A DNA stretch of 64,000 nucleotides from a plasmid: the sequence record NZ_CP025492.2; one strand, written 5' to 3'. Shown here piece after piece: positions 33,001-42,000 of the stretch. Numbering within the stretch: the first letter of the stretch is position 1; each line of letters opens with the position of its first letter. A program made the position numbers.

Positions 33001-36000
33001 TTCTTTTCTTGATTGAGGGATTAGTTCGATATTTCAATTGAACAAAGCCACCGCCAATACATTTAGTTTCAATATGCTCCAGTTCGATGTCTTGTGCCAA
33101 AGGTCCAAATAACGAACGCCCAGAGCCGAGCAACACTGGTGCAATGGTTATTGTTAATTCATGTATTAAATGCGCGGCTATAAAATTCTGGACAGTTATA
33201 CCGCCATCAATATAAAGATGTTTAAACCCTTCATCAGTTAAGCGCTTCACGAGCTCAATAGGTGTTTCGGAGGAGGTTGAAACATGTTTTAAATGAACAG
33301 GAATTTTTATGGGTTTGCTGCTCATCACTACAACTGGAAGCTCACCATAAGGCCAAGGATTAAATGATAATACTTTCTCAAAAGAATGCCTACCCATAAT
33401 GAGTCCATCGACCGTAGATATGAACTCTTTATAACCACCATCCTCACCAGATGGCACAAGCTCATTTGCTTTGGTTAGCCAATCAATAGAACCATCATCT
33501 CTTGCAATAAAACCATTAAGACTTGTAGCAATAAAAACAGAACACTTAGCAAGCATAATCGTTTATCCTTTGTATACAGACTTATTGATTGAGTTCAGAG
33601 TCGATTCTTTTTGAAGTCAGATGAAGACTCTAGAAGTCCTAAACTTAAAGCTCCTGGAAAAACAGTATCATGATCCATATTATTTAGAACATTAAAAGCA
33701 GTGCTTAAATTCCTGTGAGGCTTGCTCATGATGGTTTCATTCAATAACTTTAAATCATCTATCATTTGGTAATCGCCTTTATTTTCTTGGTCGCCGATAA
33801 TAAAGCAAACACGAGTATTTTCTTCAAGATTAAAATTTTGCTTTTTTTGAGCTGCTTTTAGCACCAAATGATTATCATACCAGAGAGAGGGGCTAACGAT
33901 AATGTAACGATTAAATATTCCAGGATGGTGGACTAATAAATATACCCCAAATAATCCACCGTAAGAATGACCGACAAAAGTAGCGGTTTTATTAACTCTA
34001 TATGTCTGGTGAAGATATGGAATAAGTTCTGAATGAATAAATCGATAAAATGATTCGGCACCACCCGAGTATTTTTGATATTCAGCTCCATATCCTCCTG
34101 ATCCAACATAACTTGGTGTGTAATCTCTGGTTCTATTTTTCTTATACTCATTAGGATTTGCATAAGCTATCCCAACAATAATGGAGTCGTTGATTCTATT
34201 TCGGTCAGATAAATGCTCACTAATTTGTTTGGCTAATGCAAAGCTGTAATCAGCATCTAATAAGTAAATAGTTGGATAGTCTTTTTTGTTAGAATCATAT
34301 TCTTTGGGGAGACTAATATATAAGTTATATTTGATTCCATTGATCTTTGAAGGAAACTCTTTGGTTAACGTATGATGTAAGCTAAATGTATTCGTGTATT
34401 TTTCCTCTAGCGGATTACTTTGTATCTTCGTCGATATGCTGGCTGCTGCCATAAGGCTTAAGGAAGATATTAAAATGAACAAGGTGAACATTTTTTTCAT
34501 AAACTAGCCTCGCAAAGACTTTAAAATAAGAGCATTCATTTGTTTCTGAATTACCTCAGGCCCACGGTCACATAAATCAATATGTTTGGCTTCAGGTAGT
34601 GGAATAATTGTTATGGCTAATTGTTTTAACGACTCTTGAGAAGGCAGTACGCCTTCATCTGCCTTAGTATCATTTCCACGCAGCGATAAAATAGGTGTTA
34701 GCCCGGTACGTGGAAAAGGCATGCGCAAGCTATCCAATGATATAATTTTTTTCACAAATTGAGGATGGTTTCTTGCAAACAACATGGCAATATCACCACC
34801 ATTCGAATGACCAATTAATGTCACTTTAGACAAGTTTAAACTGGGGTTGATCCGGCTAAGCTCTTTGATTACGTAAAGTATATTGGTACTTCCTCGTTCC
34901 CATAAGGGTTTGCGTCGCTCAAATAAATTGCCAGTTTGAGCTAATGGGGGATCTGATTTTAGATCATGCTGGATGCTTACAACAAAATAACCGTTTGCAG
35001 CAAGTGCATTGGCTAAGAATGAATATTCAGTATCGCGTACAGTGTATCCATGATTAATGATGGCAACGGGTAGTTTAATAATACCAGCATTTGCTTTCCC
35101 CTGTGATTCATTACTCACATAAATTTTAACTGGAATAAGTCGTTTGCGATCTTTATCATAAAATTTAATGGTCTTAGTTGAGATAAATGGATTGTTATCA
35201 GGCTCTGGATCCTGAGACCAATCAACCACTTTCCCGCGGGTAAAATCCCATCTATAAAGCCAAGAAACCCCAAAATGGGCATAGTAAGAATCAGCGGATA
35301 GATAGGCTTTATCCTGTAGTGCATCATCTAGGCTGATAAAATGATAACCGTATTCTTGGGCTATAGTTAAGAGTGATTCAATGGCTAATGAATTAACAAG
35401 ATTGGCATGAAGTAGCCAAATCTGATTAATATTTCTACCAAACATTTGTTTAGATGCGCTTTCATAAAAGGCAAATTTAGCACGTGTATGTTTCAAGTAA
35501 CTTTGAATGATTTTGTCTTTATTTTGAGGAAACTCATGTAATTGTTGGTTAAATTTCCAATCGTCAGTGTCTATAGTAACTGGAGCAACTAGGTATCCTT
35601 CATGTTTTAAAAACGACTCAAATTGAGAGCGAATCTTGAATGTTTCACCTGTATCAAGGTAGGGGTGCCTAAAGTAACGGTACTCTCTACCTGCACTTTG
35701 CATTAATTGTTTGGATATTTTAGAGCCATTAGTCACTTCGGCTTTAAATTGCTTGGTTGTGATGCTACTTAAGGACAGATGCGAATAAGTATGATTTCCC
35801 AAATCAAATCCGTTATCCACCCATAATTTTAGGAGATTTATTTTTTCTTGAGTTTCATTAGTGCGGTAGAGTTTCCCTTCATTCACAAATCCAATTGCAG
35901 GTACTCTATATTTGATAAGCGCATTTACTATTTGCTGATTTATTTGAGCTTGTTCCTCTATAGATTCTTCGATTGAAGCAGGTAAATCATCAAAAGTAAT

Positions 36001-39000: not shown

Positions 39001-42000
39001 TCACCATCAAAAACATTAGTGACCATATGCTCAATGCACGTGCTTTCGTACTCAGCCTTGGTAACAATTGGGAGAAAAACATGGGCATAAGTATTTTTTT
39101 GGCATCCCAAAAATCCTTTTTGTTCAAGTACTTTTACTACAGTTGCCACAGTGGTATAAGCTAAAGGTCTTTCTTTGGGCAAATGTGAAACAATATCTTT
39201 AATGGTTACTTTATTAAGGCTCCAAATAATATTCATTAATTCAAGCTCTACCTCTGTAAGGAGGCGATCATGAGCAAAAGTGTTTTCCCCTCTTTTTATT
39301 GACATTTTTTCTCCAGAAACTAAGTAAAACATAATCTACTATATTTTTAGTAGATACTACTATAAAAATAGTAGCCTTGAAATAGTTTTGAAAGAAAATA
39401 AATTTGTTGAAGTTTTATTTAGTTAAGACATCTTATAGGGGCTCTGGGTGCAAACCCCAGAGCTCCTACTTAATGATCGACAAATTAAACGTATGCTGAA
39501 CTATTGAATTGTGGTGGTTTGTACAAAACGCTGCGGTGCTTAGAACAGCCCTAAGTCAAAATGCTTTTGCTCTACCTCTTGTTGCCCTTTAGTAGCAACG
39601 CCTGTCGTTTTAATTTGTGTCTGCTCTTGTAAACGTGGGTTCATTTCTTGGGTGGGATTTTCTTTTAAACGCATATCAAGAGGCAATTCTTCTCGTATTG
39701 ATAACCATTGCCCAATAGCACTTAGATCACCAACGATAGGCTCTGCAATTTCTCGAAAAACAGCGGGTCCATTCTCGCTATTAGTGAGACAAACAACTGC
39801 TTCATCAGTAGTAAGGTTGATCGCTGCTAAATTGCGTCCAGTTCCATTATCACCCCAATGAAAAGCGATACGGGTTCCATCGGTATTTTTCTGAATCCCA
39901 ATTCCTAGACCCCAAGAGATTTGATCTAAAGTATCAGTAGAGACTCCTTGCTTCATTGCTTTAGTATCTTTATCTTTCAACGATGAAACAACCGGTTTAA
40001 ACATTTCCCATCTAATATAGGGATCGTTAATACAGGCTTTTAGAAATTTTGCATAGTCAGAAGTCGTTGTATACAAGGATCCTGCCGGGTGAACCATATA
40101 AAATTTTTGCTTACGATTTACTGAGCCATCTTGATCATGGCCAATTGCTATTGTTGCAGCATGTTCTGGAGGATGACCAATAATTGTAGTCACAAGGGGT
40201 AACTCCCTTGCTTCAACAGGTATTGGCTTTGACCAAAAAAATGGTGGTATTTGAGCAAAGCGAGCTTTGATTTCTTGTAGGCTTTTTTCTTCAAGTTGGT
40301 TGGAATTTTTTTCAGTCATTTGTACGCTGCCGTCTACTGCCCTTTCAGCAACAAATAATTTATCCTTTTGTAGGATAATACTTAATTGACCATGTACATC
40401 TAAAGTATCTTTTAATAATTTTTTAATGCGTTCAGGAGTTGGTTCTTCCTCTTCATCTGGCAGTTTAATAAGACTGCAACCCGTTGGTGGCATGAAACTA
40501 CTATCAGTCATACCTATCTTAGCAAACTCTTCTTGAGCTAAAGCTTCCAGTGATTTTGCAGTAATGTGTTCCACAATTTCACCTAGAAATTGATAAGCTA
40601 CTCCTGAATAATCAAATTGTTTTCCTACTTCAGAGACATACTTTAGAGATTCTGGTGATGAAAATTCGTTAGGTAAGCCTGCTTGATGGGATAGGATCAT
40701 ACGGGCAGTTAATTTTTTATAATTTTTATCAGTTCGCATCTGTGGAGGACCAAAATCGCCGTATTCATGGAGTGGTTTGTCTAAATCAATGAGATCTTTT
40801 TGCGCTAGTTTCAATACAATATAAGCAAATACAGGTTTACTCAATGAAGCGGCTTCAAAAACAGTCGAACTAGTAACTTCTTCAGGTTTGCTGACATTAG
40901 TCACACCTACCTCTTCTGTAGTAACAACTCCGCGGTCAGAAATAATTGCTGTGGCAATACTTGGGATACTAGTTCTTTTTTGCAATTCACTTAAAGAACT
41001 TGTCCGTTCTTTAGATGGATTGGGTCTTGGAAGTGGATTGATGCCCCAATTATTAGTTTTACCCCCTAGCTCATCAATAGTTCTAGCAAAACCCCATTTT
41101 GGAAAAAAATAGTTCGAAGCCAGTTCTATTTGAATTGTCGAAGGGACAATTTGTTCCGCAAGAATATGTCCATTATGTGAATTAGCGAAAAATACCATGG
41201 CACTCTTATCCTTTAAATTGATTGCAACCCACGCTCTGCAATCATTCATGTCACCCGAATGATAGGCGGTAACAACCTCTTCTTTTTCATTGGTTTGTAA
41301 CCCCCAACCTAAACCCCATGCAACATGGCTTAAAATGGAATCGCGTATCTTGTCTCTAGCAATTCCAATTGCTCCCGCCAAACCTCTATCGTGCGTCATG
41401 AAGGCATGCGGAATAAAAGGATTTTCAATCGAGCTGTCATGGCTTAGATGTTTGACAAACTGTGCATAATCTGATGCCGTAGTTCTTAGTGTATTGGCGG
41501 CACATGGTTTGGGTTCTTTACATCCATATTGTGAGACTACAGCTCCAATCAGCTCCGGATTGTTTGAAAGTTTACCTTTATCAGGTAACTGTTCAAGAAT
41601 GCTTGAAACTACTCTTTCCGGAAAGGAGCGATTGACTATTTTTCCATTATCTAACCAATATGCTGTTAGTTGCTCATCTTCTTTTAGTATGACAATCTGA
41701 CCAGGTTTCATTTCATCAAACAAGGGTTCTTTTTCAGCATGCAAAAGCGAGTGATAGGCCTTTAATGGCTCATAAGTGCTATGAGTCATGTCACAACGAT
41801 CAAATACATGGTTTTTGGCCAATGTTTCTAGATTTGCTTCAGTCAATTTTTCAATCACTTGTTGTAAGTACACGATACCAACATTTGAGTATCCATGCAT
41901 TTTTTCTTTAGAATCTTTTTCTTTAGGGTTAGGAATGAACTGAAACTTCATTTCACCATGAGCAAGGCCTGTTGTATGTGATAACACCATCCTTGCAGTG

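Follow-up and report, generated by a model that had tools for sequence, protein, structure and literature searches.

A BlaI/M56-headed gene row on a Legionella plasmid that may add envelope-glycan de-acetylases to a beta-lactamase unit

Inducible beta-lactam resistance is classically exemplified by BlaI/BlaR1, which has been seen as a switch for one effector, a beta-lactamase or PBP2a. Recent work shows that most members of the wider BlaIR family sense other cues and control envelope genes, and few of their outputs are known. Here we analyze a 64,000-nucleotide stretch of the plasmid record NZ_CP025492.2 (the window), which raises the question of whether a single BlaI/BlaR1-type system may govern both a beta-lactamase and secreted hydrolases. 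On the minus strand, at 33595-39374, two 18-bp dyads are followed by blaI, a sensor gene, an OXA beta-lactamase gene, a gene encoding a NodB deacetylase fused to an alpha/beta hydrolase (ABH), and an esterase gene. The answer we favor, tentatively, is that this row is a plasmid variant of the Legionella blaI-blaR1-blaOXA unit in which co-transcribed envelope-glycan de-acetylases have been added to the beta-lactam response. The features of the row, all on the minus strand and in the order of transcription, are as follows.

39357-39374, minus strand: predicted operator dyad 1, CTACTAT-TTTT-ATAGTAG, CTACTATTTTTATAGTAG, containing the predicted -35 hexamer TTTATA
39336-39353, minus strand: predicted operator dyad 2, CTACTAA-AAAT-ATAGTAG, CTACTAAAAATATAGTAG, containing the predicted -10 hexamer TATAGT (39338-39343)
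38883-39305, minus strand: blaI, winged-helix repressor of the BlaI/MecI/CopY family (PF03965, full-length match, 99.8 bits against a cut-off of 22.6)
36958-38886, minus strand: BlaR1-like sensor/transducer (PF05569 and PF00905)
36921-36951, minus strand: conserved stem-loop TGGGTRC...GTACCCA in the 69-nucleotide (nt) sensor-OXA spacer, without a U tract
36088-36888, minus strand: class D (OXA/LoxA-type) beta-lactamase with signal peptide (NCBIfam bla_class_D_alt)
34504-36084, minus strand: NodB-ABH fusion gene, 526 amino acids (aa) (PF01522 and alpha/beta hydrolase)
35185-36084, minus strand: signal peptide and NodB/CE4 deacetylase domain of the fusion, about aa 1-300 (PF01522, 62.8 bits)
34504-35184, minus strand: alpha/beta-hydrolase domain of the fusion, about aa 301-526, with a GHSNGG nucleophile elbow
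33595-34500, minus strand: secreted PF00756 esterase, 301 aa, IroE/BesA-like branch (77.8 bits)

The genes are tightly packed. blaI and the sensor gene overlap by 4 nt (ATGA), and the remaining gaps are 69, 3 and 3 nt; before both the NodB-ABH and the esterase genes, the Shine-Dalgarno sequence lies inside the preceding gene. Open reading frames (ORFs) and profile matches agree on this anatomy, as an earlier note on the same DNA had described it.

Both dyads, spaced 21 bp, are the sole perfect matches to CTACTA-N6-TAGTAG in the 64-kb window. The motif was found in 15 of 164 fetched loci, always just upstream of a blaI gene paired with a sensor that joins an M56 protease to a penicillin-binding protein (PBP) domain. 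Two copies 21-22 bp apart were present in 13 of these 15 loci, one of which encodes a sensor only 46% identical to that of the window. When five diverged carriers were aligned, the half-sites proved invariant, while the flanks diverged and the upstream sequence could not be aligned. The sole promoter-like site in the spacer is sigma-70-like, with TTTATA in dyad 1 and TATAGT in dyad 2. Promoter hexamers placed inside predicted BlaI dyads are the classic occlusion layout. Thus, the two BlaI-type operators that the earlier note had put upstream of blaI hold as predictions, the dyads being conserved, family-specific and overlapping with the predicted promoter. The longest blaI ORF spans 38883-39332. 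However, ATG 39332 is not conserved (GAG in the Legionella plasmid pLPP) and sits at or before the transcription start predicted from the -10 element, whereas ATG 39305 is preceded by a conserved GGAGA Shine-Dalgarno sequence; related assemblies carry an NCBI annotation of a 140-aa BlaI. We therefore place the blaI start probably at ATG 39305 (140 aa) rather than at 39332.

Is the row transcribed as one unit? The row has one predicted operator/promoter region, and no consensus terminator interrupts it, a conserved stem-loop being present in the 69-nt gap. The earlier note had named terminators or independent promoters separating OXA from the downstream genes as the observation that would speak against it. 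A consensus scan of the intergenic gaps found no terminator between the OXA and hydrolase genes. Promoter-like hexamers were no more frequent than in shuffled sequence (36 found versus 42 expected), giving no above-chance promoter signal between OXA and the hydrolases, and a motif scan of the 64-kb window revealed no second operator between them. On this sequence evidence, co-transcription of the five genes is likely.

The stem-loop behind the sensor gene bears directly on this point. Folding of six BlaI/M56 units (the window, L006, L078, L080, L082 and L083) gave a stem-loop directly 3' of the sensor gene in every case. Its sequence is kept among the five-gene Legionella loci and differs in more distant relatives, and no U tract comes after it in any of them. 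In the five-gene lineage, conservation of the 69-nt spacer is 90%, with an A/G change that leaves the stem paired; the spacer contains a TATAAAT element. The element may act as an attenuator, in processing or in stability. Constant position, spacer conservation and the TATAAAT element would also fit an arrangement in which the stem-loop terminates most transcription, a constitutive internal promoter drives OXA and the hydrolase genes, and BlaI/BlaR1 mainly regulates itself. We consider this very unlikely: no U tract follows any of the stems, a recognizable -35 element is missing, no operator occurs elsewhere in the window, and an uninducible beta-lactamase would leave the sensor without an output in those units that consist of blaI, sensor and beta-lactamase only. 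Because OXA has no operator of its own, induction in these three-gene units must pass through the stem-loop, and we infer that the structure is permissive.

What would the system sense? The N-terminal part of the sensor is a membrane M56 zinc protease with the motif HEGQH (PF05569, 56.5 bits versus a cut-off of 31). Its C-terminal part is a transpeptidase domain of the class-B-PBP type with the motifs STIK, SSN and KTG (PF00905, 132.7 bits), and NCBIfam models of class A/B PBPs match the last 320 residues. The model blaR1_generic aligns only to the M56 part (residues 143-260), with 31 bits versus a cut-off of 400. The best solved match is PDB 4ZTK, the transpeptidase domain of L. pneumophila 'FtsI/PBP2' (E = 1e-138), with roughly 70% identity as judged by eye from the alignment; PenA/FtsI transpeptidase domains come next. 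The ectodomain did not show homology to the class-D-like sensor domain of BlaR1, giving PBP-type matches instead. By its sequence, the ectodomain is thus class-B-PBP-like and not OXA-like, making the protein a different fusion from canonical BlaR1, with a predicted BlaR1-like mode of action. An M56-TPase architecture in L. pneumophila has been recorded in a domain survey (PMC12516126). Sensor homologues are common on Legionella chromosomes. A 500-aa 'Penicillin binding protein' of 'uncultured bacterium AOCefta1' (P0195) shares 66% identity with the sensor across 79% of its length. The clone name suggests a soil clone selected on ceftazidime in a functional-metagenomics study, so that the unit may occur outside Legionella isolates.

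The three predicted effectors all have signal-peptide-like N-termini, as seen on inspection of the translations. OXA scores 372 bits against NF000270 (bla_class_D_alt; cut-off 280) and contains the SxxK motif as STFK; it is 79% identical to the chromosomal L. pneumophila OXA, and an exact match to the protein occurs in numerous assemblies of L. pneumophila. All five CE4 motifs are present in the NodB domain (TFDD, HTYSH, RHPY, DTDDW and LLHAN), invariant or nearly so in 20 homologues, together with a subfamily-specific C-terminal motif, GVSWLYRWD. The domain's nearest relatives are CE4 peptidoglycan and chitin deacetylases and acetylxylan esterases. The ABH domain is of the cutinase/PETase/PAF-acetylhydrolase/dienelactone-hydrolase type, with relatives including PsEst3-type esterases. 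Structure prediction of the NodB-ABH protein (pLDDT 84) followed by a Foldseek search returned generic CE4 and cutinase/PETase matches that indicated no substrate. In the esterase, the nucleophile motif reads GHSYGG, and S179 and H277 are invariant in 18 homologues. Its best solved match is PDB 2QM0 'BES' (E = 8e-28), with further matches to IroE-like and ferulic acid esterases. Against the enterochelin esterase model it reached 22.7 bits (cut-off 222), and a siderophore esterase function is not implied. Curated functional cut-offs were reached by none of the three hydrolase domains. Judged by fold and motif, the three hydrolase domains together look like a carbohydrate-esterase-type de-acetylase set. 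L. pneumophila CE4 enzymes of similar size have been reported to deacetylate the N-acetylglucosamine (GlcNAc) of peptidoglycan and/or lipopolysaccharide (LPS) (PMC10266036, PMC12239567). We considered and rejected identity of the NodB-ABH protein with a published Legionella deacetylase, as it is plasmid-borne and 526 aa long, versus 286 aa for the monocistronic Lpg1993 and 35 kDa for Lpg0633 (13095).

How did the hydrolase genes come to stand behind OXA? The window belongs to a pLPP-like conjugative Legionella plasmid, most of it being 91-92% identical to pLPP of strain Paris; an L. hackeliae plasmid is near-identical to pLPP and matches the window likewise. The five-gene block, with gaps of 3-9 nt, was found in L. 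quateirensis, L. worsleiensis, two metagenome-assembled genomes (MAGs), a metagenome contig, pLPP and the L. hackeliae plasmid. It thus occurs in at least four Legionella lineages, with both flanks variable. The gene after the esterase encodes a RibD_C-methyltransferase in the window and L. quateirensis, a VOC protein in pLPP and a double-GNAT protein in L. worsleiensis, where it overlaps the esterase gene by 4 nt. The common chromosomal Legionella unit, in contrast, is blaI-sensor-bla. In core L. pneumophila its sensor and OXA are 66% and 79% identical to those of the window, and core L. pneumophila, L. quinlivanii and a relative with a class A enzyme have blaI, sensor and beta-lactamase only, the next gene being unrelated or convergent. 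Two sensor relatives lack any adjacent beta-lactamase. Since the widespread chromosomal unit ends after the beta-lactamase, the hydrolases are, on present sequences, an addition specific to the plasmid lineage and not a general Legionella beta-lactam response. The earlier note had presented the extension as part of the beta-lactam response at large, and in that general form the claim falls.

This distribution raises the possibility that the hydrolases were inserted behind OXA in a mosaic resistance island and have a function unrelated to beta-lactams, for example as enzymes exported by type II secretion that act on polymers of the surface, the host or the environment, whether or not they are reached by read-through. 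The pLPP-like backbone carries Tn3 and many GNAT, APH, nucleotidyltransferase and ABC genes; chromosomal blaI-sensor-OXA units do without the hydrolases; the variable gene after the esterase is packed equally tightly (38 nt in the window, a 4-nt overlap in L. worsleiensis); and distant NodB-ABH homologues lie in arrays of this type that lack BlaI/BlaR1. Type II secretion exports other CE4 paralogues of L. pneumophila (PMC12239567). However, the five-gene block has been inherited as a unit while its flanks changed.

We searched for the same enzymes beside BlaI/M56 genes in other bacteria with a metagenome scan seeded with the esterase family, analyzing the flanks with home-built BlaI and M56 profiles and BLAST. 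Among esterase homologues of at least 40% identity with usable flanks, the same NodB subfamily was adjacent in 7 of 22, and BlaI/M56 genes lay within 3 kb in 3 of 22. Below 40% identity, neither an adjacent NodB (0 of 38) nor BlaI/M56 (0 of 38) was found. The GC content of the NodB-esterase contigs ranged from 31 to 68%, indicating that several lineages are involved. Loci with BlaI/M56 genes near either enzyme are the following.

L096, 6143-9697: dyad CTGCACA-AAAT-TGTGCAG, blaI, M56-SLT, esterase and NodB, in overlapping frames
L095, 5205-8777: blaI and M56-M23, divergent from NodB and then esterase, with a TACTACA-A-TGTAGTA dyad in the 54-bp spacer
L083, 435-3295: its own dyads, blaI, M56-SLT, a stem-loop and esterase
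L135: blaI, M56-TonB_C and an esterase-like gene
L064 (a Cyclobacteriaceae genome), 9938-13767: NodB about 0.6 kb upstream of blaI and M56-M23

In L083, L096, L095 and L064 the sensor is of the M56-SLT or M56-M23 type, with a BlaI partner and a TAC...GTA-type dyad of its own in each case. None of the five loci contains a beta-lactamase. The partner NodB proteins carry all CE4 motifs as well as the C-terminal GxSWxxRW motif of the NodB domain in the window. Cross-lineage recurrence of one CE4 and one PF00756 subfamily with BlaI/M56 regulators is, at the sequence level, a new observation; in the searchable literature we found no paper linking polysaccharide deacetylases to BlaI/BlaR1, and a literature search found no transcript data for pLPP genes. 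NodB/esterase pairs are thus found in several unrelated lineages, in at least three of them directly under BlaI/M56 and dyads, and pure accretion would not give that. For this reason we regard chance insertion of the hydrolases as unlikely, though less so than the two-transcript arrangement discussed above. The idea that cell-wall sensing also controls envelope-type hydrolases gains strength from the pairs beside BlaI/M56 genes with SLT and M23 domains; the co-induction and the action on peptidoglycan that the earlier note suggested are, however, things that we still only infer.

The hydrolases might instead act on the drugs themselves. CE4, cutinase-like and IroE-like enzymes, working next to the beta-lactamase in the periplasm, could remove the 3'-acetyl group of cephalosporins of the cephalosporin C type or open esters and lactones in other natural products. 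Homologous domains are indeed fused to beta-lactamases and related enzymes: NodB-ABH-class A in P0020, NodB-class A in P0065, P0067 and P0069, OXA-ABH in P0081, and a VanX-like M15 dipeptidase with ABH in P0097. In L014, NodB-ABH is followed after 3 nt by an OXA gene; in L026 the OXA gene comes two genes downstream of NodB, and in L019 the distance is about 4 kb. L014 and L026 have no regulator at all. The genomic company is that of typical drug-modifying enzymes and TipAS-MerR regulators, the closest solved relatives of the esterase hydrolyze small-molecule lactones, and several acetylxylan-type esterases deacetylate cephalosporins. However, in L014, L026, L019 and similar loci, genes for GNAT, APH, nucleotidyltransferase, ABC, TipAS-MerR and glyoxalase proteins stand densely on one strand, and many are fused to one another. 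Unrelated resistance domains are often joined in such arrays (APH-GrpB-GNAT, ABH-APH), so that a fusion does not imply a shared substrate. The beta-lactamase fusions and OXA neighbors accordingly show membership of a resistance-type gene pool, and we downgraded the fusions as proof of a shared pathway. In addition, NodB-esterase pairs occur under M56-SLT and M56-M23 sensors with no beta-lactamase nearby. The known cephalosporin deacetylases come from other families (CE7 and family VIII), deacetylation merely weakens these drugs, and we know of no CE4 enzyme that acts on beta-lactams. Drug modification therefore appears improbable to us, somewhat more so than chance insertion. A candidate hidden BlaI/BlaR1 pair in L014, upstream of NodB-ABH and OXA (ORFs of 139 and 641 aa), proved to be a GNAT and an APH-GrpB-GNAT fusion.

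We return to the reading of the row as a beta-lactam-responsive unit with added envelope de-acetylases. By analogy with BlaI/BlaR1, BlaI dimers would occlude the promoter in the absence of drug. A beta-lactam would acylate the PBP-type ectodomain and thereby activate the M56 domain, leading to inactivation of BlaI. The stem-loop, being permissive, would let a single transcript continue into OXA and from there into the two hydrolase genes, which would be translationally coupled. CE4 enzyme and esterase would together be a real output of BlaIR-type wall sensing rather than a random passenger, and would most likely remove acetyl groups, N-linked and/or O-linked, from a glycan of the envelope (peptidoglycan or LPS). 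Upon beta-lactam exposure, the drug would be destroyed and the sacculus or surface would become less susceptible to lytic enzymes. Envelope glycan de-acetylation is our leading guess for the function of the enzymes, made with modest confidence because of their esterase-type folds, the L. pneumophila CE4 precedents, the peptidoglycan-binding sensors and the precedent of CenIR, a BlaIR-family pair of Clostridioides difficile.

Several observations weigh against this interpretation. BlaI/M56 genes were nearby in only 1 of about 50 non-Legionella NodB-centered genome loci. The nearest solved relatives of the esterase cleave siderophore trilactones, which are small-molecule substrates, and the NodB domain falls far under the cut-offs of the peptidoglycan deacetylase equivalogs (NF045821, 39 versus 400 bits; NF045820, 25.5 versus 800 bits). 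As for co-transcription, the conserved stem-loop might act as an attenuator behind the sensor gene, and AT-rich sequence yields promoter-like hexamers everywhere, so that the hexamer scan says nothing on internal promoters. Unrelated genes (GNAT, APH, ABC and RibD_C) are also tightly packed or fused on the plasmid and in related arrays, making short gaps by themselves weak evidence. Finally, the chromosomal Legionella units end after the beta-lactamase, which implies that the hydrolases are dispensable for the response.

A broader proposal, which we find doubtful but still worth stating, is that in several bacterial lineages BlaIR sensors with PBP, SLT or M23 ectodomains control a conserved output of two enzymes, a CE4 deacetylase of one subfamily and an IroE/CE1-like esterase, that edits wall or surface acetylation upon wall damage, and that Legionella plasmids merged this module with OXA, coupling drug destruction to envelope remodeling. 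If true, a recurrent deacetylase/esterase output would constitute a new branch of the cell-wall stress response, and would give a testable link from beta-lactam sensing through glycan acetylation to lysozyme and autolysin sensitivity, relevant to life inside amoebae and macrophages. It would also provide context for a large uncharacterized CE4 subfamily. The unit is mobile, being carried on conjugative plasmids common to several Legionella species.

Where does the unit begin and end? The features flanking the row are listed below.

39540-42668, minus strand: gene of a 1042-aa protein with two tandem class-C-like serine hydrolase domains (PF00144)
39435-39469, minus strand: GC-rich stem-loop with a 13-bp stem, 3' of the 1042-aa hydrolase gene
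32390-33556, minus strand: RibD_C and SAM-methyltransferase fusion gene, 38 nt 3' of the esterase gene, without a signal peptide

The stem-loop at 39435-39469 folds with z = -2.8, equal folding being obtained in 1 of 200 shuffles; it is conserved in pLPP and L. quateirensis and lacks a U tract. It is probably the 3' end of the upstream transcript, and hence the 5' limit of the unit, if it acts as a terminator. The 1042-aa tandem hydrolase has no obvious signal peptide; its gene, immediately upstream of the blaI operators, is kept there in pLPP and L. quateirensis, not in L. worsleiensis. On the other side, folding of the 38-nt esterase/RibD_C spacer and of the spacer between RibD_C and the following DUF3987 gene gave no stable structure. 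The RibD_C-methyltransferase gene is a variable passenger, which may be reached by read-through from the esterase gene. It is followed on the same strand by a DUF3987/YfjI-family gene (30745-32247, minus strand) and a PNPOx-family gene (30120-30695, minus strand), both of which are kept downstream in pLPP although the genes between them and the esterase gene differ. Thus, the gene row runs on past the esterase; the conserved module comprises five genes, and the transcript may extend further downstream. The claim in the earlier note of one BlaI-controlled unit extending past OXA is consistent with the single direction of the genes, the single operator/promoter region and the conservation of the block, but the row does not end at the esterase as had been supposed.

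The remainder of the window is in keeping with a mobile plasmid. A segment at about 57274-64000, with a Tn3-family transposase (60710-63967) and a P-type ATPase, is 100% identical on other Legionella plasmids, among them plasmids from L. longbeachae, L. sainthelensi and Fluoribacter dumoffii, which indicates recent exchange among Legionella plasmids. Positions 1-30000 and 42859-51137 hold a dense resistance-type array of GNATs, a GNAT-APH fusion (10372-11907), GrpB-GNAT, nucleotidyltransferases, ABC ATPases and MerR regulators. In MAGs of Alphaproteobacteria and Gammaproteobacteria, NodB-ABH homologues are embedded in arrays of this kind. A 604-aa ankyrin-repeat protein (19797-21611, minus strand) is eukaryote-like and typical of Legionella effectors.

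How does the unit compare with known systems? With BlaI/BlaR1 of S. aureus and B. licheniformis (and MecI/MecR1) it shares a PF03965 repressor, an M56 protease joined to a penicillin-binding domain, an adjacent beta-lactamase and two palindromic TAC...GTA-type operators overlapping the promoter. In contrast to these systems, the unit in the window has a class-B-PBP (FtsI/PenA) sensor domain where theirs is class-D-like, and the effector is a class D enzyme located downstream in the same direction behind a stem-loop, whereas the classical effector gene is divergent with shared operators. The dyad CTACTA-N6-TAGTAG, the two extra secreted hydrolase genes, the Gram-negative host and the plasmid location are further differences. 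The order of blaI before blaR1, to which the earlier note had drawn attention as the reverse of the staphylococcal operon, is not unusual, as it is also seen in the blaP-blaI-blaR1 divergon of B. licheniformis (PMC3305447) and in every relative examined.

The closest relative is the chromosomal Legionella blaI-M56/PBP-loxA unit (OXA-29-like), which has the same three genes, operator dyads and stem-loop position. It ends after OXA, with the next gene convergent, whereas the plasmid lineage adds NodB-ABH and the esterase. The genome context of loxA was reportedly described by Avison and Simm in 2002.

CenIR of C. difficile controls envelope genes rather than a beta-lactamase, and M56 ectodomains are diverse, including TonB_C, TP, M23 and Amidase_3 (PMC13492132). 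The likeness to the window lies in a BlaI/M56 pair controlling exported or envelope proteins. However, CenR lacks a penicillin-binding domain and the CenIR regulon (CDR_0474, Cwp6) is unrelated; the word deacetylase is absent from the CenIR paper (PMC13492132).

Among the effectors, L. pneumophila PgdA/PdaA (Lpg1993) and Lpg0633 resemble the NodB domain as secreted or periplasmic CE4 enzymes of about 290-310 aa with the catalytic Asp just after the signal peptide. Whereas the CE4 domain in the window is joined to an alpha/beta hydrolase, both are, by their published descriptions, chromosomally encoded proteins with a single domain. Lpg1993 is reported to be monocistronic, and the two papers describe neither protein as linked to beta-lactams (PMC10266036, PMC12239567). 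The siderophore trilactone esterases IroE, BesA and Cee (PF00756) have the fold, the GxSxG serine and the histidine in common with the window esterase, which differs from them in having no siderophore genes nearby, a CE4 partner and a BlaI/M56 regulator, and in its low identity to characterized enzymes.

In conclusion, a BlaI-family repressor, an adjacent M56 protease with an HExxH motif and palindromic operators over a predicted promoter are all found in the window. The unit can thus be assigned, on sequence, to the BlaIR-type systems, as one with a PBP-type sensor that would, by analogy with BlaI/BlaR1, be induced by beta-lactams.

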